64,000 nucleotides of DNA from Eledone cirrhosa. Its lineage: Eukaryota. Shown one piece after another: positions 28,601-64,000 of the stretch; position 1 is the first letter of the stretch, and every line of letters starts with the position of its first letter. The notes beneath the pieces were generated by a model. The model worked only from the letters and a program-made list of their open reading frames with translations, did no database searches and had not been told where the DNA came from. Location: positions 251,844,001 through 251,908,000 of the forward strand of contig OZ024740.1 in the NCBI GenBank assembly GCA_964016885.1, in the 5' to 3' direction. Both the position numbers and the translations under genes were made by a program.

Positions 28601-29481
28601 CCCCTTGGACGGCTGGAAATTATCTCCCCTTGGACGGCTAGAAATTATCTCTCCTTGGACGGCTGAAAATTATCTCCCCTTGGACGGCTGCAAATTATCT
28701 CCCCTTGATTTTTTTTACAAATTATCTCCCCCTGATTTTTTTTTACAAATTATCTCCCCCTGATTTTTTTTTACAAATTATCTCCCCTTGATTTTTTTTT
28801 ACAAATTATCTCCCCCTGATTTTTTTTTTACAAATTATCTCCCCCTGATTTTTTTACAAATTATCTCCCCCTGATTTTTTTTACAAATTATCTCCCCCTG
28901 ATTTTTTTTACAAATTATCTCCCCTTGATTTTTTTTTACAAATTATCTCCCCCTGATTTTTTTTTTACAAATTATCTCCCCCTGATTTTTTTAAAAATTA
29001 TCTTCCCTTGGCTGGCGGGAAATTATCTCCCCTTGGACGGCTGGAAATTATCTCCCCTTGGAAGGATGTAAATTATCTCCCCTTGGACGGCTGGAAATTA
29101 TCTCCCTTGCACGGCTGGAAATTATCTCCCCTTGATTTTTTTTACAAATTATCTCCCCCTGATTTTTTTTTACAAATTATCTCCCCCTGATTTTTTTTTA
29201 CAAATTATCTCCCCCTGATTTTTTTTACAAATTATCTCCCCCTGATTTTTAAAAAAAAAATTATCTCCCCTTCGCTGGCTGGAAATTATCTCCCCTTGGA
29301 CGCTGGAAATTATAGCCCCTTGGAGGGCTGGAAATTATCTTCCCTTGGACGGCTGGAAATTATCTTCCCTTGGACGGCTGGAAATTATCTCCCCTTGATT
29401 TTTTTTACAAATTATCTCCCCCTGATTTTTTTTTACAAATTATCTCCCCCTGATTTTTTTTTACAAATTATCTCCCCCTGA
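3960..29481 (+). repeat. 12.7-12.8 kb tandem duplication (copy 1 ~3960-16640; copy 2 ~16641-29481)
   Basis: Constant offset of 12,678 (4063/16741, 4913/17591, 5893/18571, 7269/19947), then 12,841 (8021/20862, 11516/24357, 13653/26494, 16455/29296). Shared private variants: GGCGGGCGGG (~4065/16743), GACGTCTGAA (~8149/20990), CTCCACTTGG (~10102/22943). Confidence 0.9.
4451..5830 (+). repeat. ~691-bp internal tandem duplication within the higher-order repeat
   Basis: The marker CTCCGCTTGA at 4451 and 5142 is followed by the same A block and the same 11-monomer B block; the doublet recurs near 10.1, 17.1 and 22.9 kb. Confidence 0.8.
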
Positions 29482-35400: not shown

Positions 35401-35870
35401 GGCTGGAAATTATCTCCCCTTGGACGGCTAGAAATTACCTCTCCTTGGACGGCTGAAAATTATCTCCCCTTGGACGGCTGGAAATTATCTCCCCTTGATT
35501 TTTTTACAAATTATCTCCCCCTGATTTTTTTTTACAAATTATCTCCCCCTGATTTTTTTTTACAAATTATCTCCCACTGATTTTTTTTTACAAATTATCT
35601 CCCCCTGATTTTTTTTTTACAAATTATCTCCGCCTGATTTTTTTAAAAAAATTATCTCCCCTTGGACGGCTGGAAATTATCTCCCCTTGGACGGCTGGAA
35701 ATTATCTCCCCTTGGACGGCTAGAAATTACCTCTCCTTGGACGGCTGAAAATTATCTCCCCTTGGACGGCTGCAAATTATCTCCCCTTGATTTTTTTTAC
35801 AAATTATCTCCCCCTGATTTTTTTTACAAATTATCTCCCCCTGATTTTTTTTACAAATTATCTCCCCCTG
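26880..35870 (+). repeat. Variant higher-order repeat of ~4.5-4.6 kb
   Basis: Offsets of 4531-4532 (28158/32690, 29008/33539, 29296/33827), then 4614 (29954/34568, 30370/34984, 31073/35687). Confidence 0.8.
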
Positions 35871-37965
35871 ATTTTTAAAAAAAAAATTATCTCCCCTTCG
35901 CTGGCTGGAAATTATCTCCCCTTGGACGCTGGAAATTATAGCCCCTTGGAGGGCTGGAAATTATCTTCCCTTGGACGGCTGGAAATTATCTTCCCTTGGA
36001 CGGCTGGAAATTATCTCCCCTTGATTTTTTTTACAAATTATCTCCCCCTGATTTTTTTTTACAAATTATCTCCCCCTGATTTTTTTTTACAAATCATCTC
36101 CCCCTGATTTTTTTTTTACAAATTATCTCCGCTTGATTTTTTAAAAAAAATTATCTCCCCTTGGACGGCTGGAAATTATCTCCCCTTGGACGGCTGGAAA
36201 TTATCTCCCCTTGGACGGCTAGAAATTATCTCTCCTTGGACGGCTGAAAATTATCTCCCCTTGGACGGCTGCAAATTATCTCCCCTTGATTTTTTTTACA
36301 AATTATCTCCCCCTGATTTTTTTTTACAAATTATCTCCCCCTGATTTTTTTTTACAAATTATCTACCCCTGATTTTTTTTACAAATTATCTCCCCCTGAT
36401 TTTTTTTACAAATTATCTCCCCCTGATTTTTCTTTTACAAATTATCTCCCCCTGATTTTTTTACAAATTATCTCCCCCTGATTTTTTTTACAAATTATCT
36501 CCGCCTGATTTTTTTAAATATTATCTTCCCTTGGCTGGCGGGAAATTATCTCCCCTTGGACGGCTGGAAATTATCTGCCCTTGATTTTGTTTTTACAAAT
36601 TATCTTCCACTGATTTTTTTTACAAATTATCTCCACCTGATTTTTTAAAAAATTATCTCCCCTTGGAAGGCTGGAAATTATCTCCCCTTGGACGGCTAGA
36701 AATTATCTCTCTTTGGACGGCTGGAAATTATCTCCCCTTGATTTTTTTTACAAATTATCTCCCCCTGATTTTCTTTACAAATATCCCAGTGATTTTTTTT
36801 AAAAAATTATCTCCCCTTCGCTGGCTGGAAATTATCTCCCCTTGGACGCTGGAAATTATAGCCCCTTGGAGGGCTGGAAATTATCTTCCCTTGGACGGCT
36901 GGAAATTATCTCCCCTTGATTTTTTTTACAAATTATCTCCCCCTGATTTTTTTTTACAAATTATCTCCCCCTGATTTTTTTTACAAATTATCTCCCCCTG
37001 ATTTTTTTTTACAACTTATCTCCGCCTGATTTTTTTTAAAAAATCATCTCCCCTTGGACGGCTGGAAATTATCTCCCCTTGGACGGCTGGAAATTATCTC
37101 TCCTTGGACGGCTAGAAATTACCTCTCCTTGGACGGCTGAAAATTATCTCCCCTTGGACGGCTGGAAATTATCTCCCCTTGATTTTTTTTACAAATTATC
37201 TTCCCCTGATTTTTTTTACAAATTATCTCCCCTGATTTTTTTTTACAAATTATCTCGCCCTGATTTTTTTTTACAAATTATCTCCCCCTGATTTTTTTTA
37301 CAAATTATCTCCCCCTGATTTTTTTACAAATTATCTCCCCTTGGCTGGCTGGAAATTATCTCCCCTTGGAGGCAGGAATTTATCTCCCCTTGGACGGCTA
37401 GAAATTACCTCTCCTTGGACGGCTGGAAAATATGTCTCCTTGGACGGCTGGAAATTATCTCCCCTTGGACGGCTGGAAATTATCTCCCCTTGGACGGCTG
37501 GAAATTATCTCCCCTTGGACGGCTAGAAATTACCTCTCCTTGGACGGCTGAAAATTATCTCCCCTTGGACGGCTGGAAATTATCTCCCCTTGATTTTTTT
37601 ACAAATTATCTCCCCCTGATTTTTTTTTACAAATTATCTCCCCCTGATTTTTTTTTACAAATTATCTCCCACTGATTTTTTTTTACAAATTATCTCCCCC
37701 TGATTTTTTTTTTACAAATTATCTCCGCCTGATTTTTTTAAAAAAATTATCTCCCCTTGGACGGCTGGAAATTATCTCCCCTTGGACGGCTGGAAATTAT
37801 CTCCCCTTGGACGGCTAGAAATTACCTCTCCTTGGACGGCTGAAAATTATCTCCCCTTGGACGGCTGCAAATTATCTCCCCTTGATTTTTTTTACAAATT
37901 ATCTCCCCCTGATTTTTTTTACAAATTATCTCCCCCTGATTTTTTTTACAAATTATCTCCCCCTG
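33775..37965 (+). repeat. 2095-bp tandem duplication
   Basis: Constant 2095 offset (34568/36663, 34984/37079, 35246/37341, 35687/37782); the junction monomer at 33775 recurs at 35870. Confidence 0.87.
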
Positions 37966-38029
37966 ATTTTTTTTTACAAATTATCTCCCCCTGATTTTTT
38001 TTACAAATTATCTCCCCCTGATTTTTTTT

Positions 38030-41000
38030 ACAAATTATCTCCCCCTGATTTTTTTTACAAATTATCTCCCCCTGATTTTTTTTACAATCTCCGCCTGATT
38101 TTTTAAAAAATTATCTTCCCTTGGCTGGCGGGAAATTATCTCCCCTTGGACGGCTGGAAATTATCTCCCCTTGGACGGCTAGAAATTATCTCTCTTTGGA
38201 CGGCTGGAAATTATCTCCCCTTGATTTTTTTTACAAATTATCTCCCCCTGATTTTTTTTAGAAATTATCCCCGCATGATTTTTAAAAAAAAAATTATCTC
38301 CCCTTCGCTGGCTGGAAATTATCTCCCCTTGGACGCTGGAAATTATAGCCCCTTGGAGGGCTGGAAATTATCTTCCCTTGGACGGCTGGAAATTATCTCC
38401 CCTTAATTTTTTTTACAAATTATCTCCCCCTGATTTTTTTTTACAAATTATCTCCCCCTGATTTTTTTTTACAAATTATCTCCCCCTGATTTTTTTTTTT
38501 ACAAATTATCTCCGCCTGATTTTTAAAAAAAAATTATCTCCCCTTGGACGGCTGGAAATTATCTCCTCTTGGACGGCTGGAAATTATCTCCCCTTGGACG
38601 GCTAGAAATTACCTCTCCTTGGACGGCTGAAAATTATCTCCCCTTGGACGGCTGCAAATTATCTCCCCTTGATTTTTTTTACAAATTATCTCCCCCTGAT
38701 TTTTTTTACAAATTATCTCCCCCTGATTTTTTTTACAAATTATCTCCCCCTGATTTTTTTTTACAAATTATCTCCCCCTGATTTTTTTTTACAAATTATC
38801 TCCCCCTGATTTTTTTTACAAATTATCTCCCCCTGATTTTTTTTTACAAATTATCTCCCCCTGATTTTTTTTTACAAATTATCTCCCCTTGATTTTTTTT
38901 ACAAATTATCTCCCCCTGATTTTTTTTTTACAAATTATCTCCCCCTGATTTTTTTTACAAATTATCTCCCCCTGATTTTTTTTACAAATTATCTCCCCCT
39001 GATTTTTTTTACAAATTATCTCCCCTTGATTTTTTTTTACAAATTATCTCCCCCTGATTTTTTTTTTACAAATTATCTCCCCCTGATTTTTTTAAAAATT
39101 ATCTTCCCTTGGCTGGCGGGAAATTATCTCCCCTTGGACGGCTGGAAATTATCTCCCCTTGGAAGGATGTAAATTATCTCCCCTTGGACGGCTGGAAATT
39201 ATCTCCCCTTGCACGGCTGGAAATTATCTCCCCTTGCACGGCTGGAAATTATCTCCCCTTGATTTTTTTTACAAATTATCTCCCCCTGATTTTTTTTTAC
39301 AAATTATCTCCCCCTGATTTTTTTTTACAAATTATCTCCCCCTGATTTTTTTTACAAATTATCTCCCCCTGAATTTAAAAAAAAAAATTATCTCCCCTTC
39401 GCTGGCTGGAAATTATCTCCCCTTGGACGCTGGAAATTATAGCCCCTTGGAGGGCTGGAAATTATCTTCCCTTGGACGGCTGGAAATTATCTTCCCTTGG
39501 ACGGCTGGAAATTATCTCCCCTTGATTTTTTTTACAAATTATCTCCCCCTGATTTTTTTTTACAAATTATCTCCCCCTGATTTTTTTTACAAATTATCTA
39601 CCCCTGATTTTTTTTACAAATTATCTCCCCCTGATTTTTTTTTACAAATTATCTCCCTCTGATTTTTTTTTACAAATTATCTCCCCCTGATTTTTTTTTT
39701 ACAAATTATCTCCCCCTGATTTTTTTACAAATTATCTCCCCCTGATTTTTTTTACAATCTCCGCCTGATTTTTTAAAAAATTATCTTCCCTTGGCTGGCG
39801 GGAAATTATCTCCCCTTGGACGGCTGGAAATTATCTCCCCTTGGACGGCTAGAAATTATCTCTCTTTGGACGGCTGGAAATTATCTCCCCTTGATTTTTT
39901 TTACAAATTATCTCCCCCTGATTTTTTTTACAAATTATCCCCGCATGATTTTTAAAAAAAAAATTATCTCCCCTTCGCTGGCTGGAAATTATCTCCCCTT
40001 GGACGCTGGAAATTATAGCCCCTTGGAGGGCTGGAAATTATCTTCCCTTGGACGGCTGGAAATTATCTCCCCTTGATTTTTTTTACAAATTATCTCCCCC
40101 TGATTTTTTTTTACAAATTATCTCCCCCTGATTTTTTTTTACAAATTATCTCCCCCTGATTTTTTTTTTTACAAATTATCTCCGCCTGATTTTTAAAAAA
40201 AAATTATCTCCCCTTGGACGGCTGGAAATTATCTCCCCTTGGACGGCTGGAAATTATCTCCCCTTGGACGGCTAGAAATTACCTCTCCTTGGACGGCTGA
40301 AAATTATCTCCCCTTGGACGGCTGCAAATTATCTCCCCTTGATTTTTTTTACAAATTATCTCCCCCTGATTTTTTTTACAAATTATCTCCCCCTGATTTT
40401 TTTTACAAATTATCTCCCCCTGATTTTTTTTTACAAATTATCTCCCCCTGATTTTTTTTTACAAATTATCTCCCCCTGATTTTTTTTACAAATTATCTCC
40501 CCCTGATTTTTTTTACAAATTATCTCCCCCTGATTTTTTTTTACAAATTATCTCCCCTTGATTTTTTTTTACAAATTATCTCCCCCTGATTTTTTTTTTA
40601 CAAATTATCTCCCCCTGATTTTTTTACAAATTATCTCCCCCTGATTTTTTTTACAAATTATCTCCCCCTGATTTTTTTTACAAATTATCTCCCCTTGATT
40701 TTTTTTTACAAATTATCTCCCCCTGATTTTTTTTTTACAAATTATCTCCCCCTGATTTTTTTAAAAATTATCTTCCCTTGGCTGGCGGGAAATTATCTCC
40801 CCTTGGACGGCTGGAAATTATCTCCCCTTGGAAGGATGTAAATTATCTCCCCTTGGACGGCTGGAAATTATCTCCCCTTGCAAGGCTGGAAATTATCTCC
40901 CCTTGATTTTTTTTACAAATTATCTCCCCCTGATTTTTTTTTACAAATTATCTCCCCCTGATTTTTTTTTACAAATTATCTCCCCCTGATTTTTTTTACA

Positions 41001-41250
41001 AATTATCTCCACCTGATTTAAAAAAAAAAAATTATCTCCCCTTCGCTGGCTGCAAATTATCTCCCCTTGGACGCTGGAAATTATAGCCCCTTGGAGGGCT
41101 GGAAATTATCTTCCCTTGGACGGCTGGAAATTATCTTCCCTTGGACGGCTGGAAATTATCTCCCCTTGATTTTTTTTACAAATTATCTCCCCCTGATTTT
41201 TTTTTACAAATTATCTCCCCCTGATTTTTTTTTACAAATTATCTCCCCCT
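38030..41250 (+). repeat. ~1670-bp tandem duplication
   Basis: Offsets of 1670 (38146/39816, 38569/40239; TTTACAATCTCCGCC at 38081/39751), drifting to 1644 further right (39423/41067). Confidence 0.75.
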
Positions 41251-44200
41251 GATTTTTTTTTTACAAATTATCTCCGCTTGATTTTTTAAAAAAAATTATC
41301 TCCCCTTGGACGGCTGGAAATTATCTCCCCTTGGACGGCTGGAAATTATCTCCCCTTGGACGGCTAGAAATTATCTCTCCTTGGACGGCTGAAAATTATC
41401 TCCCCTTGGACGGCTGCAAATTATCTCCCCTTGATTTTTTTTACAAATTATCTCCCCCTGATTTTTTTTTACAAATTATCTCCCCCTCATTTTTTTACAA
41501 ATTATCTACCCCTGATTTTTTTTACAAATTATCTCCCCCTGATTTTTTTTTACAAATTATCTCCCTCTGATTTTTTTTTACAAATTATCTCCCCCTGATT
41601 TTTTTTTTACAAATTATCTCCCCCTGATTTTTTTAAAAATTATCTCCCCCTGATTTTTTTACAATCTCCGCCTGATTTTTTTAAAAATTATCTTCCCTTG
41701 GCTGGCGGGAAATTATCTCCCCTTGGACGGCTGGAAATTATCTCCCCTTGGAAGGATGGAAATTATCTCCCCTTGGACGGCAGGATATTATCTCCCCTTG
41801 CACGGCTGGAAATTATCTCCCCTTGGCTGGAAATTATCTCCCCTTGGACGGCTAGAAATTATCTCTCTTTGGACGGCTGGAAATTATCTCCCTTTGATTT
41901 TTTTTACAAATTATCTCCCTCTGATATTTTTTACAAATCTCCCCCTGATTTTTTAAAAAAAATTATCTCCCCTTCGCTGGCTGGAAATTATCTCCCCTTG
42001 GACACTGGAAATTATAGCCCCTTGGAGGGCTGGAAATTATCTTCCCTTGGACGGCTGGAAATTATCTCCCCTTGATTTTTTTTACAAATAATCTCCGCCT
42101 GATTTTTTTTAAAAATTATCTCTCCTTGGACGGCTGGAAATTATCTCCCCTTGATTTCTTTTACAAATTATCTCCCCCTGATTTTTTTTACAAATTATCT
42201 CCCCCTGATTTTTTTTTACAAATTATCTACCACTGATTTTTTTTACAAATTATCTCCCCCTGATTTTTTTTACAAATTATCTCCCCCTGATTTTTCTTTT
42301 ACAAATTATCTCCCCCTGATTTTTTTACAAATTATCTCCCCCTGATTTTTTTTACAAATTATCTCCGCCTGATTTTTTTAAATATTATCTTCCCTTGGCT
42401 GGCGGGAAATTATCTCCCCTTGGACGGCTGGAAATTATCTGCCCTTGATTTTGTTTTTACAAATTATCTTCCACTGATTTTTTTTACAAATTATCTCCAC
42501 CTGATTTTTTAAAAAATTATCTCCCCTTGGAAGGCTGGAAATTATCTCCCCTTGGACGGCTAGAAATTATCTCTCTTTGGACGGCTGGAAATTATCTCCC
42601 CTTGATTTTTTTTACAAATTATCTCCCCCTGATTTTTTTTACAAATATCCCAGTGATTTTTTAAAAAAAATTATCTCCCCTTCGCTGGCTGGAAATTATC
42701 TCCCCTTGGACGCTGGAAATTATAGCCCCTTGGAGGGCTGGAAATTATCTTCCCTTGGACGGCTGGAAATTATCTCCCCTTGATTTTTTTTACAAATTAT
42801 CTCCCCCTGATTTTTTTTTACAAATTATCTCCCCCTGATTTTTTTTTACAAATTATCTCCCCCTGATTTTTTTTTACAACTTATCTCCGCCTGATTTTTT
42901 TTAAAAAATCATCTCCCCTTGGACGGCTGGAAATTATCTCCCCTTGGACGGCTGGAAATTATCTCTCCTTGGACGGCTAGAAATTACCTCTCCTTGGACA
43001 ATTGAAAATTATCTCCCCTTGGACGGCTGGAAATTATCTCCCCTTGATTTTTTTTACAAATTATCTCCCCCTGATTTTTTTTACAAATTATCTCCCCTGA
43101 TTTTTTTTTACAAATTATCTCTCCCTGATTTTTTTTTACAAATTATCTCCCCCTGATTTTTTTTACAAATTATCTCCCCCTGATTTTTTTACAAATTATC
43201 TCCCCTTGGCTGGCTGGAAATTATCTCCCCTTGGAGGCAGGAATTTATCTCCCCTTGGACGGCTAGAAATTACCTCTCCTTGGACGGCTGGAAAATATGT
43301 CTCCTTGGACGGCTGGAAATTATCTCCCCTTGGACGGCTGGAAATTATCTCCCCTTGGACGGCTGGAAATTATCTCCCCTTGGACGGCTAGAAATTACCT
43401 CTCCTTGGACGGCTGAAAATTATCTCCCCTTGGACGGCTGGAAATTATCTCCCCTTGATTTTTTTACAAATTATCTCCCTCTGATTTTTTTTTACAAATT
43501 ATCTCCCCCTGATTTTTTTTACAAATTATCTCCCCCTGATTTTTTTTACAAATTATCTCCCCCTGATTTTTTTTACAAATTATCTCCGCCTGATTTTTAT
43601 AAATATTATCTCTCCTTGGCTGGCGGGAAATTATCTCCCCTTGGACGGCTGCAAATTATCTCCGCTTGATTTTTTTTACAAATTATCTCCCCCTGATTTT
43701 TTTTTACAAATTATCTCCCCCTGATTTTTTTTACAAATTATCTCCCCCTGATTTTTTTTACAAATTATCTCCCCCTGATTTTTTTTTACAAATTATCTCC
43801 CCTTGATTTTTTTTTACAAATTATCTCCCCCTGATTTTTTTTTTACAAATTATCTCCCCCTGATTTTTTTACAAATTATCTCCCCCTGATTTTTTTTACA
43901 AATTATCTCCCCCTGATTTTTTTTACAAATTATCTCCCCTTGATTTTTTTTTACAAATTATCTCCCCCTGATTTTTTTTTTACAAATTATCTCCCCCTGA
44001 TTTTTTTAAAAATTATCTTCCCTTGGCTGGCGGGAAATTATCTCCCCTTGGACGGCTGGAAATTATCTCCCCTTGGAAGGATGTAAATTATCTCCCCTTG
44101 GACGGCTGGAAATTATCTCCCCTTGCACGGCTGGCAATTATCTCCCCTTGATTTTTTTTACAAATTATCTCCCCCTGATTTTTTTTTACAAATTATCTCC

Positions 44201-46336
44201 CCCTGATTTTTTTTTACAAATTATCTCCCCCTGATTTTTTTTACAAATTATCTCCCCCTGATTTTTAAAAAAAAAATTATCTCCCCTTCGCTGGCTGGAA
44301 ATTATCTCCCCTTGGACGCTGGAAATTATAGCCCCTTGGAGGGCTGGAAATTATCTTCCCTTGGACGGCTGGAAATTATCTTCCCTTGGACGGCTGGAAA
44401 TTATCTCCCCTTGATTTTTTTTACAAATTATCTCCCCCTGATTTTTTTTTACAAATTATCTCCCCCTGATTTTTTTTTACAAATTATCTCCCCCTGATTT
44501 TTTTTTTACAAATTATCTCCGCTTGATTTTTTAAAAAAAATTATCTCCCCTTGGACGGCTGGAAATTATCTCCCCGTGGACGGCTGGAAATTATCTCCCC
44601 TTGGACGGCTAGAAATTATCTCTCCTTGGACGGCTGAAAATTATCTCCCCTTGATTTTTTTTACAAATTATCTCCCCCTGATTTTTTTTTACAAATTATC
44701 TCCCCCTGATTTTTTTTACAAATTATCTACCCCTGATTTTTTTTACAAATTATCTCCCCCTGATTTTTTTTACAAATTATCTCCCTCTGATTTTTTTTTA
44801 CAAATTATCTCCCCCTGATTTTTTTTTTACAAATTATCTCCCCCTGATTTTTTTACAAATTATCTCCCCCTGATTTTTTTTACAATCTCCGCCTGATTTT
44901 TTAAAAAATTATCTTCCCTTGGCTGGCGGGAAATTATCTCCCCTTGGACGGCTGGAAATTATCTCCCCTTGGACGGCTAGAAATTATCTCTCTTTGGACG
45001 GCTGGAAATTATCTCCCCTTGATTTTTTTTACAAATTATCTCCCCCTGATTTTTTTTACAAATTATCCCCGCATGATTTTTTAAAAAAAAATTATCTCCC
45101 CTTCGCTGGCTGGAAATTATCTCCCCTTGGACGCTGGAAATTATAGCCCCTTGGAGGGCTGGAAATTATCTTCCCTTGGACGGCTGGAAATTATCTCCCC
45201 TTGATTTTTTTTACAAATTATCTCCCCCTGATTTTTTTTTACAAATTATCTCCCCCTGATTTTTTTTTACAAATTATCTCCCCCTGATTTTTTTTTTTAC
45301 AAATTATCACCGCCTGATTTAAAAAAAAAAATTATCTCCCCTTGGACGGCTGGAAATTATCTCCCCTTGGACGGCTGGAAATTATCTCCCCTTGGACGGC
45401 TAGAAATTACCTCTCCTTGGACGGCTGAAAATTATCTCCCCTTGGACGGCTGCAAATTATCTCCCCTTGATTTTTTTTACAAATTATCTCCCCCTGATTT
45501 TTTTTACAAATTATCTCCCCCTGATTTTTTTTACAAATTAACTCCCCCTGATTTTTTTTTACAAATTATCTCCCCCTGATTTTTTTTTACAAATTATCTC
45601 CCCCTGATTTTTTTTACAAATTATCTCCCCCTGATTTTTTTTACAAATTATCTCCCCCTGATTTTTTTTTACAAATTATCTCCCCTTGATTTTTTTTTAC
45701 AAATTATCTCCCCCTGATTTTTTTTTTACAAATTATCTCCCCCTGATTTTTTTACAAATTATCTCCCCCTGATTTTTTTTACAAATTATCTCCCCCTGAT
45801 TTTTTTTACAAATTATCTCCCCCTGATTTTTTTTTTACAAATTATCTCCCCCTGATTTTTTTAAAAATTATCTTCCCTTGGCTGGCGGGAAATTATCTCC
45901 CCTTGGACGGCTGGAAATTATCTCCCCTTGGAAGGATGTAAATTATCTCCCCTTGGACGGCTGGAAATTATCTCCCCTTGCACGGCTGGAAATTATCTCC
46001 CCTTGATTTTTTTTACAAATTATCTCCCCCTGATTTTTTTTTACAAATTATCTCCCCCTGATTTTTTTTACAAATTATCTCCCCCTGATTTTTTTTACAA
46101 ATTATCTTCCCTTGGCTGGCGGGAAATTATCTCCCCTTGGCCGGCTGGAAATTATCTCCTCTTGGCCGGCTGGATATTATCTCCCCTTGGCCGGCTGGAT
46201 ATTATCTCCTCTCGGCCGGCTGGAAATTATCTCCCCTTGGCCGGCTGGAATTTATCTCCCCTTGGCCGGCTGGATTTTATACCCCGTTGGCCGGCTGGAA
46301 ATAATCTCCCCTTGCCCGGCTCGAAAATATCTCCCC

Positions 46337-46657
46337 TAAATTAAATTAAATTAAATTAAATCCAATTAATTAAATTAATTAATTAATTATATTTTTTTTA
46401 TTTTATTTTTTTTTATTTTTTTTTATTAATTACGTTATTAATTAATTAATTAATTATGTAAATTGATTTTATTTCAATTTAATGTTATTTAATTTAATTT
46501 AATTTAATTTAATTTAATTTACTTTAAATCAATTTAATTTAATCTAATTTAATTTAAGTTAATTTTATTTTATTTTATTTCAAAAACGAAACGAAACCCG
46601 TGTACCTAAAAAAACAAACGAAAAGAAACCGGGGAACCTAAAAAATCGAACGAAACG
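46337..46657. repeat. AT-rich spacer copy 1 (321 bp)
   Basis: (TAAAT)n, (TTAA)n, T-rich tract, ATTACGTTATT, (ATTTA)n, then the 32-bp doublet GAAACC(G/C)G..ACCTAAAAAA. Confidence 0.93.
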
Positions 46658-47069
46658 AAATTATCTCCCCTTGGCCTGCTGGAAATTATCTTCCCTTGGT
46701 CGGCTTGATATTATCTCCCCTTGGCAGGCTGGAAATTATCTCCCCTTGGCCGACTGGAAATTATCTCTCCTTGGGCGGCGGGATATTATCTCCCCTTGGC
46801 CGGCTGGAAGTTATCTCCCCTTGGCCAGCTGGAAATTATCTCGCCTTGGCCGGCTGGAATTTAGCTCTCCTTGGCCGGCTGGAAATATACTCCCCTTGGC
46901 CGGCTGGAAATATACTCCCCTTGGCCGGCTGGAAATTATCTCCTCTTGGCCGGCTGGATATTATCTCCCCTTGGCTGCTGGATATTATCTCCCCTTGGCC
47001 AGCTGGAAATTATCTCCACTTGGCCGGCTGCAAATTATCTCCTTTTGGCCAGCTGGAAATTATCTCCCC
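46658..47069 (+). repeat. Block of ~16 diverged 25-bp GGCC-type monomers
   Basis: Consensus AAATTATCTCCCCTTGGCCGGCTGG, with most copies carrying one or more substitutions. Confidence 0.92.
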
Positions 47070-47362
47070 TAAATTAAATTAAATTAAATCAAATTAATTA
47101 AATTAATTAATTAATTGATTATATTTTTTTTATTTTATTTATTTTAATTTTTTTTTTAATTACGTTATTAATTAATTAATTAATTATGTAAATTGATTTT
47201 ATTTTAATTTAATGTAATTTAATTTAATTTAATTTACTTTAATTCAATTTAATTTAATTTTATTTAATTTTATTTTATTTTATTTAAAAAACGAAACGAA
47301 ACCGGGGCACCTAAAAAAACAAACGAAAAGAAACCGGGGAACCTAAAAAATCGAACGAAATG
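47070..47362. repeat. AT-rich spacer copy 2 (293 bp)
   Basis: Same module order as copy 1, with different microsatellite lengths. Confidence 0.93.
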
Positions 47363-47950
47363 AAATTATCTCCCCTTGGCTTGCTGGAAATTATCTCAAC
47401 TCGACCGGCTGGATACTATCTCCCCTTGGCCGGCTGGAAATTATCTCCCCTTAGCCGGCTGGAAATTATCTCCCATTGGCCGGCTGGATATTATCTCCCC
47501 TTGGCCGGCTGGATGTTATCTCCCCTTGGCCAGCTAGAAATTATCTCCACTTGGCCGGCTGGAAATTATCTTCTCTTGGCCGGCTGGAAATTATCTCCCT
47601 TTGGCCGGCTGCATATTATCTCCCCTTGGCCGGCTGGATATGATCTCCCCTTGGCCGGCTGGAAATTATCTCCCCTTGGCAGGTTGGAAATTATCTCCCC
47701 TTGGCCGGCTGGAAATTATCTCCCCTTGGCCGGCTGGAAATAATCTCCCCTTGGCCGGCCGGAAATTATCTTCCTTTGGCCGGCTGGATATTATCTCCGC
47801 TTGGCCGGCTGGAAATTATCTCCCCTTGGCCAGCTGGATATTATCTCCCCTCGGCCGGCTGGAAATTATCTCCCCTTGGCCGGCTGGAATTTATCTCCCC
47901 TTGGCCGGCTGGAATTTATATCCCCTTGCCCGGCTCGAAAATATCTCCCC
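47363..47950 (+). repeat. Block of 23 diverged 25-bp GGCC-type monomers plus terminal core
   Basis: 588 bp = 23 x 25 + 13-bp core, so no net indel; many substitutions. Confidence 0.92.
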
Positions 47951-48255
47951 TAATTAAAATTAAATTAAATTAAATTAAATCAAATAAATTAAATTAATTA
48001 ATTAATTAATTATATTTTTTTTATTTTATTTATTTTTATTTTTTTTTATTAATTACGTTATTAATTAATTAATTAATTATGTAAATTGATTTCATTTCAA
48101 TTTAATGTAATTTAATTTAATTTAATTTACTTTAATTCAATTCAATTTAATTTAATTTAATTTAATTTAATTTTATTTAAAAAACGAAACGAAACCGGGG
48201 TACCTAAAAAAACAAACGAAAAGAAACCGGGGAACCTAAAAAATCGAACGAAATG
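47951..48255. repeat. AT-rich spacer copy 3 (305 bp)
   Basis: Same module order; ends CCTAAAAAATCGAACGAAATG as copy 2 does. Confidence 0.93.
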
Positions 48256-48370
48256 AAATTATCTCCCCTTGGCTTGCTGGAAATTATCTCAACTCGACCG
48301 GCTGGATACTATCTCCCCTTGGCCGGCTGGAAATTATCTCCCCTTAGCCGGCTGGAAATTATCTCCCCTT

Positions 48371-51300
48371 GGACGGCTGGAAATTATCTCCCCTTGATTT
48401 TTTTTACAAATTATCTCCCCCTGATTTTTTTTTACAAATTATCTCCCCCTGATTTTTTTTTACAACTTATCTCCGCCTGATTTTTTTAAAAAAATCATCT
48501 CCCCTTGGACGGCTGGAAATTATCTCCCCTGGGACGGCTGGAAATTATCTCTCCTTGGACGGCTAGAAATTACCTCTCCTTGGACAATTGAAAATTATCT
48601 CCCCTTGGACGGCTGGAAATTATCTCCCCTTGATTTTTTTTACAAATTATCTCCCCCTGATTTTTTTTACAAATTATCTCCCCTGATTTTTTTTTACAAA
48701 TTATCTCCCCCTGATTTTTTTTTACAAATTATCTCCCCCTGATTTTTTTTACAAATTATCTCCCCCTGATTTTTTTACAAATTATCTCCCCTTGGCTGGC
48801 TGGAAATTATCTCCCCTTGGAGGCAGGAATTTATCTCCCCTTGGACGGCTAGAAATTACCTCTCCTTGGACGGCTGGAAAATATGGTTCCTTGGACGGCT
48901 GGAAATTATCTCCCCTTGGACGGCTGGAAATTATCTCCCCTTGGACGGCTGGAAATTATCTCCCCTTGGACGGCTAGAAATGACCTCTCCTTGGCTGGCG
49001 GGAAATTATCTCCCCTTGGACGGCTGCAAATTATCTCCGCTTGATTTTTTTTACAAATTATCTCCCCCTGATTTTTTTTTACAAATTATCTCCCCCTGAT
49101 TTTTTTTACAAATTATCTCCCCTGATTTTTTTTTACAAATTATCTCCCCCTGATTTTTTTTTACAAATTATCTCCCCCTGATTTTTTTTTTACAAATTAT
49201 CTCCCCCTGATTTTTTTACAAATTATCTCCCCCTGATTTTTTTTACAATCTCCGCCTGATTTTTTTAAAAATTATCTTCCCTTGGCTGGCGGGAAATTAT
49301 CTCCCCTTGGACGGCTGGAAATTATCTCCCCTTGGAAGGATGGAAATTATCTCCCCTTGGACGGCTGGAAATTATCTCCCCTTGCACGGCTGGAAATTAT
49401 CTCCCCTTGGCTGGAAATTATCTCCCCTTGGACGGCTAGAAATTATCTCTCTTTGGATGGCTGGAAATTATCTCCCTTTGATTTTTTTTACAAATTATCT
49501 CCCTCTGATTTTTTTTACAAATCTCCCCCTGATTTTTTTTTACAAATTATCTCCCCCTGATTTTTTTTACAAACTATCTCCCCCTGATTTTTTTACAAAT
49601 TATCTCCCCTTGGCTGGCTGGAAATTATCTCCCCTTGGAGGCTGGAATTTATCTCCCCTTGGACGGCTAGAAATTACCTCTCCTTGGACGGCTGGAAAAT
49701 ATGTCTCCTTGGACGGCTGGAAATTATCTCCCCTTGGACGGCTGGAAATTACCTCTCCTTGGACGGCTGAAAATTATCTCCCCTTGGACGGCTGGAAATT
49801 ATCTCCCCTTGATTTTTTTACAAATTATCTCCCCCTGATTTTTTTTTTACAAATTATCTCCCCCTGATTTTTTTTACAAATTATCTACGCCTGATTTTTT
49901 TAAATATTATCTCTCCTTGGCTGGCGGGAAATTATCTCCCCTTGGAAGGATGGAAATTATCTCCCCTTGGACGGCTGGAAATTATCTCCCCTTGCACTGC
50001 TGGAAATTATCTCCCCTTGGACGGCTGGAAATTATCTGCCCTTGATTTTGTTTTTACAAATTATCTTCCCCTGATTATTTTTACAAATTATCTCCACCTG
50101 ATTTTTTAAAAAATTATCTCCCCTTGGACGGCTGGAAATTATCTCCCCTTGGCTGGAAATTATCTCCCCTTGGACGGCTAGAAATTATCTCTCTTTGGAC
50201 GGCTGGAAATTATCTCCCCTTGATTTTTTTTACAAATTATCTCCCCCTGATTTTTTTTACAAATTATCCCCCCATGATTTTTTAAAAAAAAATTATCTCC
50301 CCTTCGCTGGCTGGAAATTATCTCCCCTTGGACGCTGGAAATTATAGCCCCTTGGAGGGCTGGAAATTATCTTCCCTTGGACGGCTGGAAATTATCTCCC
50401 CTTGATTTTTTTTACAAATTATCTCCCCCTGATTTTTTTTTACAAATTATCTCCCCCTAATTTTTTTAAAAAAATTATCTCCCCTTGGACGGCTGGAAAT
50501 TATCTCCCCTTGGACGGCTGGAAATTATCTCCCCTTGGACGGCTAGAAATTACCTCTCCTTGGACGGCTGAAAATTATCTCCCCTTGGACGGCTGCAAAT
50601 TATCTCCCCTTGATTTTTTTTACAAATTATCCCCCCATGATTTTTAAAAAAAAAATTATCTCCCCTTCGCTGGCTGGAAATTATCTCCCCTTGGACGCTG
50701 GAAATTATAGCCCCTTGGAGGGCTGGAAATTATCTTCCCTTCGACGGCTGGAAATTATCTCCCCTTGATTTTTTTTACAAATTATCTCCCCCTGATTTTT
50801 TTTTACAAATTATCTCCCACTGATTTTTTTTTACAAATTATCTCCCCCTGATTTTTTTTTTACAAATTATCTCCGCCTGATTTTTTAAAAAAAATTATCT
50901 CCCCTTGGACGGCTGGAAATTATCTCCCCTTGGACGGCTGGAAATTATCTCCCCTTGGACGGCTAGAAATTACCTCTCCTTGGACGGCTGAAAATTATCT
51001 CCCCTTGGACGGCTGCAAATTATCTCCCCTTGATTTTTTTTACAAATTATCTCCCCCTGATTTTTTTTACAAATTATCTCCCCCTGATTTTTTTTACAAA
51101 TTATCTCCCCCTGATTTTTTTTTACAAATTATCTCCCCCTGATTTTTTTTTACAAATTATCTCCCCCTGATTTTTTTTACAAATTATCTCCCCCTGATTT
51201 TTTTTACAATCTCCGCCTGATTTTTTAAAAAATTATCTCCCCTTGGACGGCTGGAAATTATCTCCCCTTGGACGGCTGGAAATTATCTCCCCTTGGACGG

Positions 51301-54300
51301 CTAGAAATTATCTCTCTTTGGACGGCTGGAAATTATCTCCCCTTGATTTTTTTTACAAATTATCTCCCCCTGATTTTTTTTACAAATTATCCCCGCATGA
51401 TTTTTAAAAAAAAAATTATCTCCCCTTCGCTGGCTGGAAATTATCTCCCCTTGGACGCTGGAAATTATAGCCCCTTGGAGGGCTGGAAATTATCTTCCCT
51501 TGGACGGCTGGAAATTATCTCCCCTTGATTTTTTTTACAAATTATCTCCCCCTGATTTTTTTTTACAAATTATCTCCCCCTGATTTTTTTTTACAAATTA
51601 TCTCCCCCTGATTTTTTTTTTTACAAATTATCTCCGCCTGATTTTAAAAAAAAAATTATCTCCCCTTGGACGGCTGGAAATTATCTCCCCTTGGACGGCT
51701 GGAAATTATCTCCCCTTGGACGGCTAGAAATTACCTCTCCTTGGACGGCTGAAAATTATCTCCCATTGGACGGCTGCAAATTATCTCCCCTTGATTTTTT
51801 TTACAAATTATCTCCCCCTGATTTTTTTTACAAATTATCTCCCCCTGATTTTTTTTTACAAATTATCTCCCCCTGATTTTTTTTTACAAATTATCTCCCC
51901 CTGATTTTTTTTACAAATTATCTCCCCCTGATTTTTTTTACAAATTATCTCCCCCTGATTTTTTTTTACAAATTATCTCCCCTTGATTTTTTTTACAAAT
52001 TATCTCCCCCTGATTTTTTTTTTACAAATTATCTCCCCCTGATTTTTTTACAAATTATCTCCCCCTGATTTTTTTTACAAATTATCTCCCCCTGATTTTT
52101 TTTACAAATTATCTCCCCTTGATTTTTTTTTACAAATTATCTCCCCCTGATTTTTTTTTTACAAATTATCTCCCCCTGATTTTTTTTAAAATTATCTTCC
52201 CTTGGCTGGCGGGAAATTATCTCCCCTTGGACGGCTGGAAATTATCTCCCCTTGGAAGGATGTAAATTATCTCCCCTTGGACGGCTGGAAATTATCTCCC
52301 CTTGCACGGCTGGAAATTATCTCCCCTTGATTTTTTTTACAAATTATCTCCCCCTGATTTTTTTTTACAAATTATCTCCCCCTGATTTTTTTTTACAAAT
52401 TATCTCCCCCTGATTTTTTTTACAAATTATCTCCCCCTGATTTAAAAAAAAAAAATTATCTCCTCTTCGCTGGCTGGAAATTATCTCCCCTTGGACGCTG
52501 GAAATTATAGCCCCTTGGAGGGCTGGAAATTATCTTCCCTTGGACGGCTGGAAATTATCTTCCCTTGGACGGCTGGAAATTATCTCCCCTTGATTTTTTT
52601 TACAAATTATCTCCCCCTGATTTTTTTTTACAAATTATCTCCCCCTGATTTTTTTTTACAAATTATCTCCCCCTGATTTTTTTTTTACAAATTATCTCCG
52701 CTTGATTTTTAAAAAAAAATTATCTCCCCTTGGACGGCTGGAAATTATCTCCCCTTGGACGGCTGGAAATTATCTCCCCTTGGACGGCTAGAAATTATCT
52801 CTCCTTGGACGGCTGAAAATTATCTCCCCTTGGACGGCTGCAAATTATCTCCCCTTGATTTATTTTACAAATTATCTCCCCCTGATTTTTTTTTACAAAT
52901 TATCTCCCCCTCATTTTTTTTACAAATTATCTACCCCTGATTTTTTTTACAAATTATCTCCCCCTGATTTTGTTTTACAAATTATCTCCCTCTGATTTTT
53001 TTTTACAAATTATCTCCCCCTGATTTTTTTTTTACAAATTATCTCCCCCTGATTTTTTTAAAAATTATCTCCCCCTGATTTTTTTACAATCTCCGCCTGA
53101 TTTTTTTAAAAATTATCTTGCCTTGGCTGGCGGGAAATTATCTCCCCTTGGACGGCTGGAAATTATCTCCCCTTGGAAGGATGGAAATTATCTCCCCTTG
53201 GACGGCTGGAAATTATCTCCCCTTGCACGGCTGGAAATTATCTCCCCTTGGCTGGAAATTATCTCCCCTTGGACGGCTAGAAATTATCTCTCTTTGGACG
53301 GCTGGAAATTATGTCCCTTTGATTTTTTTTATAAATTATCTACCTCTGATATTTTTTACAAATCTCCCCCTGATTTTTTAAAAAAAATTATCTCCCCTTC
53401 GCTGGCTGGAAATTATCTCCCCTTGGACACTGGAAATTATAGCCCCTTGGAGGGCTGGAAATTATCTTCCCTTGGACGGCTGGAAATTATCTCCCCTTGA
53501 TTTTTTTTACAAATTATCTCCGCCTGATTTTTTTTAAAAATTATCTCTCCTTGGACGGCTGGAAATTATCTCCCCTTGATTTTTTTTACAAATTATCTCC
53601 CCCTGATTTTTTTTTACAAATTATCTCCCCCTAATTTTTTTTTACAAATTATCTACCCCTGATTTTTTTTACAAATTATCTCCCCCTGATTTTTTTTACA
53701 AATTATCTCCCCCTGATTTTTCTTTTACAAATTATCTCCCCCTGATTTTTTTACAAATTATCTCCCCCTGATTTTTTTTACAAATTATCTCCGCCTGATT
53801 TTTTTAAATATTATCTTCCCTTGGCTGGCGGGAAATTATCTCCCCTTGGACGGCTGGAAATTATCTGCCCTTGATTTTGTTTTTACAAATTATCTTCCAC
53901 TGATTTTTTTTACAAATTATCTCCACCTGATTTTTTAAAAAAATTATCTCCCCTTGGAAGGTTGGAAATTATCTCCCCTTGGACGGCTAGAAATTATCTC
54001 TCTTTGGACGGCTGGAAATTATCTCCCCTTGATTTTTTTTACAAATTATCTCCCCCTGATTTTTTTTACAAATATCCCAGTGATTTTTTTTAAAAAATTA
54101 TCTCCCCTTCGCTGGCTGGAAATTATCTCCCCTTGGACGCTGGAAATTATAGCCCCTTGGAGGGCTGGAAATTATCTTCCCTTGGACGGCTGGAAATTAT
54201 CTCCCCTTGATTTTTTTTACAAATTATCTCCCCCTGATTTTTTTTTTCAAATTGTCTCCCCCTGATTTTTTTTTACAAATTATCTCCCCCTGATTTTTTT

Positions 54301-57300
54301 TTACAACTTATCTCCGCCTGATTTTTTTTAAAAAATCATCTCCCCTTGGACGGCTGGAAATTATCTCCCCTTGGACGGCTGGAAATTATCTCTCCTTGGA
54401 CGGCTAGAAATTACCTCTCCTTGGACAATTGAAAATTATCTCCCCTTGGACGGCTGGAAATTATCTCCCCTTGATTTATTTTACAAATTATCTCCCCCTG
54501 ATTTTTTTTACAAATTATCTCCCCTGATTTTTTTTTACAAATTATCTCCCCCTGATTTTTTTTTACAAATTATCTCCCCCTGATTTTTTTTACAAATTAT
54601 CTCCCCCTGATTTTTTTACAAATTATCTCCCCTTGGCTGGCTGGAAATTATCTCCCCTTGGAGGCAGGAATTTATCTCCCCTTGGACGGGTAGAAATTAC
54701 CTCTCCTTGGACGGCTGGAAAATATGTCTCCTTGGACGGCTGGAAATTATCTCCCCTTGGACGGCTGGAAATTATCTCCCCTTGGACGGCTGGAAATTAT
54801 CTCCCCTTGGACGGCTAGAAATTACTTCTCCTTGGACGGCTGAAAATTATCTCCCCTTGGACGGCTGGAAATTATCTCCCCTTGATTTTTTTACAAATTA
54901 TCTCCCCCTGATTTTTTTTTACAAATTATCTCCCCCTGATTTTTTTTACAAATTATCTCCCCCTGATTTTTTTTACAAATTATCTCCCCCTGATTTTTTT
55001 TACAAATTATCTCCGCCTGATTTTTTTAAATATTATCTCTCCTTGGCTGGCGGGAAATTATCTCCCCTTGGACGGCTGCAAATTATCTCCGCTTGATTTT
55101 TTTTACAAATTATCTCCCCCTGATTTTTTTTTAAAAATTATCTCCCCCTGATTTTTTTTACAAATTATCTCCCCTGATTTTTTTTTACAAATTATCTCCC
55201 CCTGATTTTTTTTTACAAATTATCTCCCCCTGATTTTTTTTTTACAAATTATCTCCCCCTGATTTTTTTACAAATTATCTCCCCCTGATTTTTTTTACAA
55301 TCTCCGCCTGATTTTTTTAAAAATTATCTTCCCTTGGCTGGCGGGAAATTATCTCCCCTTGGACGGCTGGAAATTATCTCCCCTTGGAAGGATGGAAATT
55401 ATCTCCCCTTGGACGGCTGGAAATTATCTCCCCTTGCACGGCTGGAAATTATCTCCCCTTGGCTGGAAATTATCTCCCCTTGGACGGCTAGAAATTATCT
55501 CTCTTTGGATGGCTGGAAATTATCTCCCTTTGATTTTTTTTACAAATTATCTCCCTCTGATTTTTTTTACAAATCTCCCCCTGATTTTTTTTTACAAATT
55601 ATCTCCCCCTGATTTTTTTTACAAACTATCTCCCCCTGATTTTTTTACAAATTATCTCCCCTTGGCTGGCTGGAAATTATCTCCCCTTGGAGGCTGGAAT
55701 TTATCTCCCCTTGGACGGCTAGAAATTACCTCTCCTTGGACGGCTGGAAAATATGTCTCCTTGGACGGCTGGAAATTATCTCCCCTTGGACGGCTGGAAA
55801 TTACCTCTCCTTGGACGGCTGAAAATTATCTCCCCTTGGACGGCTGGAAATTATCTCCCCTTGATTTTTTTACAAATTATCTCCCCCTGATTTTTTTTTT
55901 ACAAATTATCTCCCCCTGATTTTTTTTACAAATTATCTACGCCTGATTTTTTTAAATATTATCTCTCCTTGGCTGGCGGGAAATTATCTCCCCTTGGACG
56001 GCTGGAAATTATCTCCCCTTGGAAGGATGGAAATTATCTCCCCTTGGACGGCTGGAAATTATCTCCCCTTGCACTGCTGGAAATTATCTCCCCTTGGACG
56101 GCTGGAAATTATCTGCCCTTGATTTTGTTTTTACAAATTATCTTCCCCTGATTATTTTTACAAATTATCTCCACCTGATTTTTTAAAAAATTATCTCCCC
56201 TTGGACGGCTGGAAATTATCTCCCCTTGGCTGGAAATTATCTCCCCTTGGACGGCTAGAAATTATCTCTCTTTGGACGGCTGGAAATTATCTCCCCTTGA
56301 TTTTTTTTACAAATTATCTCCCCCTGATTTTTTTTACAAATTATCCCCCCATGATTTTTAAAAACAAAATTATCTCCCCTTCGCTGGCTGGAAATTATCT
56401 CCCCTTGGACGCTGGAAATTATAGCCCCTTGGAGGGCTGGAAATTATCTTCCCTTGGACGGCTGGAAATTATCTCCCCTTGATTTTTTTTACAAATTATC
56501 TCCCCCTGATTTTTTTTTACAAATTATCTCCCCCTGATTTTTTTTTTACAAATTATCTCCGCCTGATTTTTTTAAAAAAATTATCTCCCCTTGGACGGCT
56601 GGAAATTATCTCCCCTTGGACGGCTGGAAATTATCTCCCGTTGGACGGCTAGAAATTACCTCTCCTTGGACGGCTGAAAATTATCTCCCCTTGGACGGCT
56701 GCAAATTATCTCCCCTTGATTTTTTTTACAAATTATCCCCCCATGATTTTTAAAAAAAAAATTATCTCCCCTTCGCTGGCTGGAAATTATCTCCCCTTGG
56801 ACGCTGGAAATTATAGCCCCTTGGAGGGCTGGAAATTATCTTCCCTTGGACGGCTGGAAATTATCTCCCCTTGATTTTTTTTACAAATTATCTCCCTCTG
56901 ATTTTTTTTTACAAATTATCTCCCACTGATTTTTTTTTACAAATTATCTCCCCCTGATTTTTTTTTTACAAATTATCTCCGCGTGATTTTTTTAAAAAAA
57001 TTATCTCCCCTTGGACGGCTGGAAATTATCTCCCCTTGGACGGCTGGAAATTATCTCGCCTTGGACGGCTAGAAATTACCTCTCCTTGGACGGCTGAAAA
57101 TTATCTCCCCTTGGACGGCTGCAAATTATCTCCCCTTGATTTTTTTTACAAATTATCTCCCCCTGATTTTTTTTACAAATTATCTCCCCCTGATTTTTTT
57201 TACAAATTATCTCCCCCTGATTTTTTTTTACAAATTATCTCCCCCTGATTTTTTTTCCAAATTATCTCCCCCTGATTTTTTTTACAAATTATCTCCCCCT

Positions 57301-63300: not shown

Positions 63301-64000
63301 TACAAATTATCTCCCTCTGATTTTTTTTTACAAATTATCTCCCCCTGATTTTTTTTTTACAAATTATCTCCCCCTGATTTTTTTACAAATTATCTCCCCC
63401 TGATTTTTTTTACAATCTCCGCCTGATTTTTTAAAAAATTATCTTCCCTTGGCTGGCGGGAAATTATCTCCCCTTGGACGGCTGGAAATTATCTCCCCTT
63501 GGACGGCTAGAAATTATCTCTCTTTGGACGGCTGGAAATTATCTCCCCTTGATTTTTTTTACAAATTATCTCCCCCTGATTTTTTTTACAAATTATCCCC
63601 GCATGATTTTTAAAAAAAAAATTATCTCCCCTTCGCTGGCTGGAAATTATCTCCCCTTGGACGCTGGAAATTATAGCCCCTTGGAGGGCTGGAAATTATC
63701 TCCCCTTGGACGGCTGGAAATTATCTCCCCTTGCACTGCTGGAAATTATCTCCCCTTGGACGGCTGGAAATTATCTGCCCTTGATTTTGTTTTTACAAAT
63801 TATCTTCCCCTGATTATTTTTACAAATTATCTCCACCTGATTTTTTAAAAAATTATCTCCCCTTGGACGGCTGGAAATTATCTCCCCTTGGCTGGAAATT
63901 ATCTCCCCTTGGACGGCTAGAAATTATCTCTCTTTGGACGGCTGGAAATTATCTCCCCTTGATTTTTTTTACAAATTATCTCCCCCTGATTTTTTTTACA
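48371..64000 (+). repeat. Two-monomer satellite array, right part
   Basis: Type A (GGACGG) and type B monomers resume in the same orientation and run off the right edge of the window. Confidence 0.98.
53030..61900 (+). repeat. 4428-bp near-perfect tandem duplication (copy 1 ~53030-57460; copy 2 ~57460-61900)
   Basis: Constant 4428 offset (53118/57546, 53954/58382, 54707/59135, 55359/59787, 57036/61464). Shared private variants: ATCTTGCC, GGAAGGTTGG, TTTCAAATTGTCTC, GACGGGTAG, AAAACAAAA, CTCCGCGTGA. Confidence 0.92.

Follow-up and report, generated by a model that had tools for sequence, protein, structure and literature searches.

The stretch examined here, hereafter the window, comprises 64,000 nucleotides of chromosome C1 of Eledone cirrhosa (C1:251,844,001-251,908,000; C1 measures 443 Mb in an assembly of 3.0 Gb). 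It consists of a single satellite, built from type A (25-bp, GGAC or GGCT) and type B (26-29-bp, poly-T) monomers with a common head. Within this A/B satellite lies an island of a composite repeat, P2, in which an AT-rich spacer and an element termed the A-box are joined to n GGCC-type 25-mers, and this repeat likely preserves a middle step between a repeat beside telomere-like tracts and the present satellite. The reading favoured here, held with considerable confidence but short of certainty, is that the island is a 99.7% duplicate of P2 and that P2 is an ancestral layer of the A/B satellite, reached through the series P0 to P1 to P2 to A/B, in which P1 and P0 are longer relatives of P2.

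Anchored parsing divided the window into 2,370 units; only three, the spacers, exceed 52 bp, and the units of 48-52 bp are dimers with a worn head. A first-pass annotation of the window had placed the island at 46126..48370; the island itself stands, with exact limits of 46124-48355 (Table 1). Its account of three ~300-bp spacers between blocks of 8, 16, 23 and 4 GGCC 25-mers, free of type B monomers and set apart from type A by a single diagnostic base of the consensus (GGCC versus GGAC), was borne out by the parsing, and GGCCGG occurs in 0/936 A-type 25-mers of the window. The spacers (46337-46657, 47070-47362 and 47951-48255) align with a mean column identity of 90%, each being an AT-rich 5-bp mosaic followed by an A-box of 2.4 x 32 bp. 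Across 563 kb of C1, TTGGCCGG has no occurrence outside spacer blocks and TTGGACGG has three inside them. The island monomers had also been described as more heterogeneous, which holds for variant richness, with 35 distinct sequences among 48 monomers as against 18.5-20 for A-type monomers (18.5 in random sets of 48, at most 27 in contiguous sets), and only weakly for mean distance to consensus in the window (1.81 versus 1.62).

In order to place the island, 600 kb around the window were retrieved and 563 kb parsed, C1:251.24-251.64 Mb being sampled only. The C1 array spans at least 1 Mb; it is bounded by a 200-N gap at 251.192 Mb and reaches as far as 252.207 Mb. The parsed sequence holds 281 spacers in six P2 blocks totalling 212.8 kb, namely 43.5 kb, the island (2.3 kb), 1.5, 36.3 and 24.0 kb and a terminal block of 105 kb at the array edge; the four large blocks have one common left junction. 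An exact 40-letter A-box pattern has all 88 of its genome matches within a 433-kb locus at C1:251.77-252.21 Mb, on one strand. The A/B arrays of C3 (at 165.863-165.874 Mb) and of C21 (at 17.716 Mb) are edged by a variant of P2, which also stands alone, with no A/B nearby, at C3:179.43 Mb. These four P2 loci hold 118 of the 124 exact GGCC dimers, the other six not having been located. The proposal that the spacer and GGCC monomers form a repeat family of their own is upheld, and P2 is tandem at all four loci.

Longer units are found outward of P2 on C3, where the array edge reads A/B, P2, P1 in outward order. Each of the two to three P1 units there has monomers of 19 bp whose head is that of the other types, together with the spacer already described, an A-box longer than that of P2, TATTTCCGG repeats and a GC-rich block made up of 27-bp subunits. 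A search with the GC block, in which 40 of 852 candidates were scored, revealed clusters on C2, C3, C4, C8, C13 and C14, mostly at 73-89% identity. The cluster at C2:192.18 Mb is P1 and the other seven loci are P0, a P1 unit without any monomer, which is arranged in tandem as AT spacer, three to five A-box subunits, fold-back GC block and TATTTCCGG repeats. The subunits of the P0 and P1 GC blocks are first inverted and then direct, giving a fold-back with arms of ~100 bp (z -15.0 for P0; for example L125:1577-1880). The core, TGCGCATGCGCA, resembles what we take to be an NRF1 site, and TATTTCCGG presumably resembles an ETS site, as in subtelomeric promoters. Alignment identifies the island spacer as the P1/P0 spacer with its A-box cut short and fused to the monomer head. 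Of the 24 exact matches to the 19-mer, one P1 locus has 13, the other P1 locus 10 and C27 a single one; the last belongs to an orphan run of four to five 19-mers without spacer, and for that reason C27 was rejected as a donor.

P0 adjoins degenerate TTAGGG-like tracts at five of seven loci and a strongly worn one at the C2 P0 locus, none being clear at C8:31.03 Mb. Three such tracts that were measured are 44-57% exact, compared with 98-99% at true chromosome ends. The P0 loci on C8, C13 and C14 lie at 51-56% of chromosome length. P0 was rejected as a present-day subtelomeric repeat, as none was found within 10 kb of 18 chromosome ends, three of which reach telomeric repeat and one of those three is all telomere. 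An origin from an RNA gene or ribosomal DNA (rDNA) was likewise rejected, as 29 Rfam matches in five loci were all below gathering score, with none reported on the island locus. The P1 cluster on C2 (L124:1-3140; C2:192.175-192.178 Mb) interrupts the 3' part of a long terminal repeat (LTR) retroelement remnant with RNase H and integrase domains upstream, and no target duplication was seen at this cluster.

Several observations point to P2 as the older partner. The P2 family is most likely older than A/B because of its edge position, its lower sharing between chromosomes and the existence of two still older relatives, which agrees with the annotation's proposal that A/B is a younger derivative of the spacer-bearing unit. 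P2 lies at three of four resolved A/B edges seen (C1 3', C3 3' and C21 5'; not C123), with P1 outermost on C3. The share of 61-mers in common with C1 is 0.19-0.40 for the A/B of other chromosomes and 0.01-0.04 for their P2, while P2 of C21 and C3 share 51%, which is a recent transfer. Distinct variants per 45 monomers are more numerous in P2 than in A/B on C1 (32.5 versus 17.2) and C3 (28.7 versus 23.4), but hardly so on C21 (23.7 versus 22.5). Step counts were used in place of a tree of the 25-bp monomers, which would lack resolution: the diagnostic base of the 19-mer is C, and GGAC is one step from GGCC and two from the 19-mer-like GGCT. The 19-mer ending GGCTCG precedes the spacer in 75 of 94 such endings on C1 and is absent on C3; its retention may reflect one amplified mutation and was not counted for direction. 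P0, which has no monomer, is diverse. Five marks in the GC block tie P1 to P0, with 3-5 of them in P1, 3 in one P0 copy and none in the other 29 P0 copies.

The order of events is inferred from the directly observed block map, identities, homology of the P0, P1 and P2 spacers and A/B-P2-P1 order at the C3 edge. P0 would have formed small clusters, in most cases next to interstitial TTAGGG tracts, until a 19-bp sequence was inserted into an AAATT run of one P0 sub-lineage and multiplied, giving P1. The monomer would then have grown to 25 bp and ~350-450 bp, comprising the GC block and part of the A-box, would have been deleted by joining of the A-box AAA to the head AAATT, giving P2. Finally, the spacer may have been lost, C replaced by A and the poly-T tail of B acquired, with amplification of A/B to roughly 18 Mb on several chromosomes and P2 and P1 left at the array edges.

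A number of points weigh against this series. No source was found for either the 19-mer or the B tail, the five GC-block marks were chosen by eye after the sequences had been seen, and a tree of 34 GC blocks joins three of four P1 blocks at 100/99 but does not recover P1 as one clade, the label needing two changes. Mean distance to consensus is alike in P2 (1.3-1.8) and A/B (1.55-1.66), and if small arrays exchange less often, this could account in part for how little P2 is shared from one chromosome to another. A search for P2 itself led to two of the three edges that it lines, the single resolved C123 edge lacks it, and the C1 5' and C3 plus-strand 3' ends of the arrays are 200-N gaps. The direction is suggested by internal rooting within the one genome; the A-box and monomer had no match in sequencing runs of related organisms B, C and G, a blank that is no proof of absence. 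Several of these points would suit the possibility that P1 and P2 are derived hybrids, in which monomers of an existing satellite were captured into P0 at array borders, making them side branches rather than ancestors of A/B. P2 sits just where a satellite would meet foreign repeats, and the missing 19-mer source, the spacer-free run on C27, the lack of a single P1 clade and the lack of an outgroup are all compatible with capture. Nevertheless, there is no free-standing 19-mer array (23 of 24 matches are inside P1), 118 of the 124 exact GGCC dimers are in spacer-bearing loci, divergence from chromosome to chromosome is greater for P2 than for A/B, P2 occurs without A/B nearby at C3:179.43 Mb, and capture from A/B needs both the loss of all B monomers and an A to C reversion. 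Such hybrids are accordingly considered unlikely, and the ancestral series is preferred.

The age of the P2 family is distinct from that of the island copy. The idea of a relic left in place did not survive comparison with a 43.5-kb P2 block 78 kb upstream (block 1), to whose final 2.26 kb the island is identical at 2255 of 2261 aligned bases. Judged from sequence, the island is a trimmed duplicate, because of this 99.7% identity with the end of the block: the family is old and the copy young. The left flank, over 7.2-8.9 kb ending at 46111, is 99.5-99.8% identical to the A/B stretch that ends 1.37 kb before each of the four large P2 blocks. In a third copy, at C1:251.918 Mb, all but one of 1466 bases agree with the island, and 9 kb of the right flank are common to both, every tile being 100% identical. 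The A/B stretch at 48356-57400 includes monomer variants that recur only in this twin at 251.92 Mb, which suggests an older sub-domain of the A/B array. A C1 segment of A/B flank and P2 block would thus have been duplicated repeatedly, one copy losing ~42.6 kb to give the island. Both island junctions fall within monomer heads, and P2 was likely brought into the array interior via unequal exchange between the heads common to all monomer types. Two details sit awkwardly with the derivation from block 1, as the right flanks diverge at once (identity over the initial 500 bp is 85%) and the left junction is filled by one GGCT monomer; a single clean deletion from block 1 therefore does not explain the island and was ruled out. 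Simple insertion into an intact higher-order repeat was also rejected, no empty site being present in the 563 kb of C1.

The near identity with block 1 could instead signal a misassembly, with part of the large block wrongly joined into A/B sequence. One of the near-identical copies at the island and 251.918 Mb could be an assembly duplication, and the read support covers junctions internal to the repeats, not those between island and A/B. Set against this, two internal substitutions and 10 bp of microsatellite distinguish the island from block 1, and the surrounding 664 kb contain no N. Contigs from sequencing run X1, possibly the assembly's own sample, carry the A-box-to-monomer junction without differences and an A-box-to-GC-block loose end, and the latter junction is covered by raw reads of two other samples, so that the existence of the repeat families does not depend on this point. 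Misassembly of the island seems extremely unlikely.

The first-pass annotation had also proposed a Helitron- or Helentron-type mobile parent, and expansion of the central repeats of a non-autonomous rolling-circle element (Helentron/HINE or DINE-like), with the island as an insertion, would account for the modular anatomy of microsatellite and central tandem repeats, the small isolated clusters at C3:179.43 Mb and inside the C2 LTR-element remnant, and the strong folding of the P0 GC block. The features of HINE elements given in the accessible text of PMC7492417, namely a subterminal inverted repeat (subTIR), an inverted repeat (IR), a palindrome, TT insertion and a microsatellite, were sought in P2. 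No 5' subTIR of 11-12 bp with a complementary IR in a constant left flank was found, the 25 longest of the 38 inverted pairs listed for a whole P2 unit all being self-complementarity of the AT microsatellite. A 3' subTIR with a palindrome or stem-loop at a constant right end was also lacking in P2, the spacer folding no better than shuffled sequences (z +1.10), and the GC block that does fold lies inside the tandem units of P0 and is missing in P2. Among the four P2 loci and the 40 of 852 P0 candidates scored, no dispersed single copies with fixed limits were seen, P2 being always tandem, and the A-box matches are confined to one locus and strand. Fifteen cluster ends are heterogeneous and fall in different parts of the unit, two pairs being shared along with the adjoining telomere-like tract; T|T insertion was seen at none of the 15, as placed by eye. 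Where HINE elements have a short microsatellite, often GTCY, ahead of their central repeats, P2 has a long AT-rich 5-bp mosaic, a feature that is counted neither for nor against. In keeping with the annotation's own remark that neither transposase nor clear termini were visible, no Rep/helicase was detected among 12 open reading frames (ORFs) scanned from 30 flank loci, a survey that did not extend genome-wide, and the only families matched by these ORFs were reverse transcriptase, endonuclease, RNase H and integrase. Helentron anatomy was rejected for P2 on ends, subTIR, hairpin, TT target and empty site, and a rolling-circle parent is very improbable; small outlying clusters with random ends would fit spread by recombination or circles.

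The A/B satellite itself is abundant. An A-B junction pattern has 30,922 matches, equivalent to 14-27 Mb at local rates and ~18 Mb at the C1 rate, and A/B lies at 57%, 60%, 44%, 54% and 50% of the length of C1, C2, C3, C4 and C21, respectively, with a further occurrence on the unplaced C123 in the same six-sequence survey. The satellite is probably centromeric, to judge solely from its size and mid-chromosome position. The P0/TTAGGG loci and A/B arrays cluster near mid-chromosome, in a bimodal karyotype with C1-C4 at 379-443 Mb and C8, C13, C14, C21 and C27 at 22-61 Mb. A plus-strand A/B array faces a minus-strand array at C3:165.2-167.5 Mb and C2:248.2-250.8 Mb; on C3 the two are separated by a 200-N gap and the arrangement may be a scaffolding effect. 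Other repeats adjoin these arrays. Beyond the 5' gap of the C1 array is a different AT-rich satellite with a GC content of 0.17 (L089, L146-L150; C1:251.140-251.188 Mb) and a strand switch near 251.147 Mb. Unrelated satellites of ~78 and ~54 bp, periods judged by eye, lie between the C3 arrays (L103:1-9925, L161-L164), and two further satellites occur at cluster edges (L168:9190 onward, L224:1-1370). At the 3' end of the C1 array, two ~476-bp tandem copies (L070:8971-9950; C1:252,206,970-252,207,950) contain a hammerhead-like core, CTGATGA...GAAAC, and a related element beside P0 (L125:614-685) has a below-threshold score for Rfam HH9. An ORF inside inverted repeats beyond this end (L071:1404-2612) is presumably Penelope-like and has no Pfam hit.

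The monomer head provides a further connection with chromosome ends. Its first 13 bases are 83-100% per position to consensus in A and B, with the tails replaced, and mostly 85-98% in P2, with one position at 71%. An element of ~1.3 kb before the true telomeres of C13 and C14 contains seven copies of the head motif, compared with 0.018 in 1,000 shuffles. The element occurs at about 30 places, and all 12 loci fetched run into telomeric repeat, one copy of the element lying directly before it. It has 5-9 copies of TT(A/G)T(C/T)(T/C)CCC(C)TT; TTATCTCCCCTTG is present in 11 of the 12 loci and TTTCCCTTGGCCGG recurs. In this it is reminiscent of single-copy core elements of subtelomeres. Copies accompanied by telomeric tracts also lie internally, at C2:412.3, C2:0.82 and C11:32.8 Mb, and may mark former chromosome ends or ends misplaced in scaffolding. 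The likeness extends over 11-13 bp only and was found after the fact, BLAST of the element joined it to no satellite locus, and 381 kb of other DNA contain 13 instances of a relaxed head motif, three of them being the orphan 19-mers; it is a lead, not a result. A rather doubtful extension would have the satellite built from telomere-side parts, a repeat of former chromosome-end fusion sites having captured TTATCTCCCCTTG from the element that precedes true telomeres, and each subsequent step having shed flanking sequence while the head was retained because a subtelomeric DNA-binding protein reads it.

Table 1. Coordinates of the island, its host satellite and the subtelomeric element (window positions unless a locus is given)
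Feature	Position	Strand	Basis or remarks
Host A/B satellite, left flank	1..46123	+	25-bp GGAC/GGCT and 26-29-bp poly-T monomers, shared 13-16-bp head
Last left-flank unit, GGCT-type monomer at junction	46099-46123	+	parsing
P2 monomer block 1, 8 GGCC-type 25-mers	46124..46323	+	parsing
Monomer head leading into spacer 1, junction as in P1	46324..46336	+	parsing, alignment
Spacer 1	46337..46657	+	AT-rich 5-bp microsatellite mosaic to 46581; A-box 2.4 x 32 bp, 46582-46657
P2 monomer block 2, 16 units	46658..47056	+	parsing
Monomer head and spacer 2, A-box 47286-47362	47057..47362	+	parsing, alignment
P2 monomer block 3, 23 units	47363..47937	+	parsing
Monomer head and spacer 3, A-box 48179-48255	47938..48255	+	homologous to P1/P0 spacer, truncated A-box
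P2 monomer block 4, 4 units, to right junction	48256..48355	+	parsing
Host A/B satellite, right flank	48356..64000	+	first 9 kb duplicated at C1:251.918 Mb with the island's last 1.47 kb
Non-coding subtelomeric element, ~1.3 kb	L217:1400-2760; L219:3700-4985; L226-L237		internal inverted repeats

The layers of alpha satellite are all composed of monomers of ~171 bp. According to the accessible parts of PMC4496801, primate alpha satellite has a homogeneous higher-order core and older, variant-rich edge layers, old pieces of which have been re-amplified recently. The E. cirrhosa array is similar in that an older and more variant-rich layer flanks the core and pieces of it were recently re-amplified, and differs in that each older layer is structurally longer, by the spacer and then the GC block, and so records the birth of the monomer. 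In the available sections of the respective papers, short tandem arrays carried by Ogre LTR-retrotransposons have given rise to satellites, which in Lathyrus lie mainly at primary constrictions (PMC7004042), and so have rDNA spacers (PMC5615363); there, as here, a tandem sub-repeat within a longer unit breaks free and is amplified. In E. cirrhosa, unlike those cases, the parent, a non-coding unit in tandem, lies next to interstitial telomeric tracts, and two intermediates survive in order beside the array. A microsatellite beside central tandem repeats is a feature of DINE-1 elements. It is likewise seen in the Cg_HINE Helentrons of oyster, as far as the text of PMC7492417 is accessible, whose subTIR/IR, constant-end 3' palindrome, TT insertion and fixed-boundary dispersal are lacking here.

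Parts of the Tree of Life centromere atlas (bioRxiv 10.64898/2026.09.17.752431) describe ditypic, tiered and transposon-derived centromeric arrays that, as in E. cirrhosa, have sub-nucleosomal monomers, intermixed related families and insertions copied within arrays by host recombination; unlike the transposon-derived routes given there, the present parent is a non-transposon unit associated with telomere tracts, with its intermediates retained. Telomere-side sequence at the chromosome centre is also seen, in the accessible text, in hop HSR1 (PMC12371157) and Solanum (cited in PMC5615363), with the difference that in E. cirrhosa the telomeric repeat itself is not the satellite and a neighbouring complex unit has been remodelled. 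No closer case appears in the available parts of PMC8122249, PMC12371157 and the atlas preprint, whose supplementary list of families may include this satellite. A literature search found no description of the repeat, the 12-letter head motif matching unrelated papers only. The system appears to unite two known modes, the layering of alpha satellite and the escape of a sub-repeat from within a longer unit, to the extent that these are set out in the accessible text of PMC4496801, PMC7004042 and PMC5615363, and differs from them in its non-transposon, telomere-tract-associated parent and retained structural intermediates.

The birth of satellite monomers is usually inferred from end products. 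In E. cirrhosa, four stages are present in one assembly, namely a monomer-free parent, a 19-bp monomer, a 25-bp monomer with spacer and the spacer-free A/B satellite; three of the four are in physical order at one array edge, and each proposed step corresponds to a named, checkable junction. The genome has at least four giant chromosomes and many small ones, and the association of the parent with interstitial telomeric tracts links the birth of the satellite to sites of possible fusion. The 13-bp head, which has stayed unchanged and is also found in the subtelomeric element, may bear on whether satellite turnover conserves a putative protein site. If the satellite were indeed built from telomere-side parts, a centromere would have been constructed around a protein-binding site of the telomere region, with all intermediates still in the genome.

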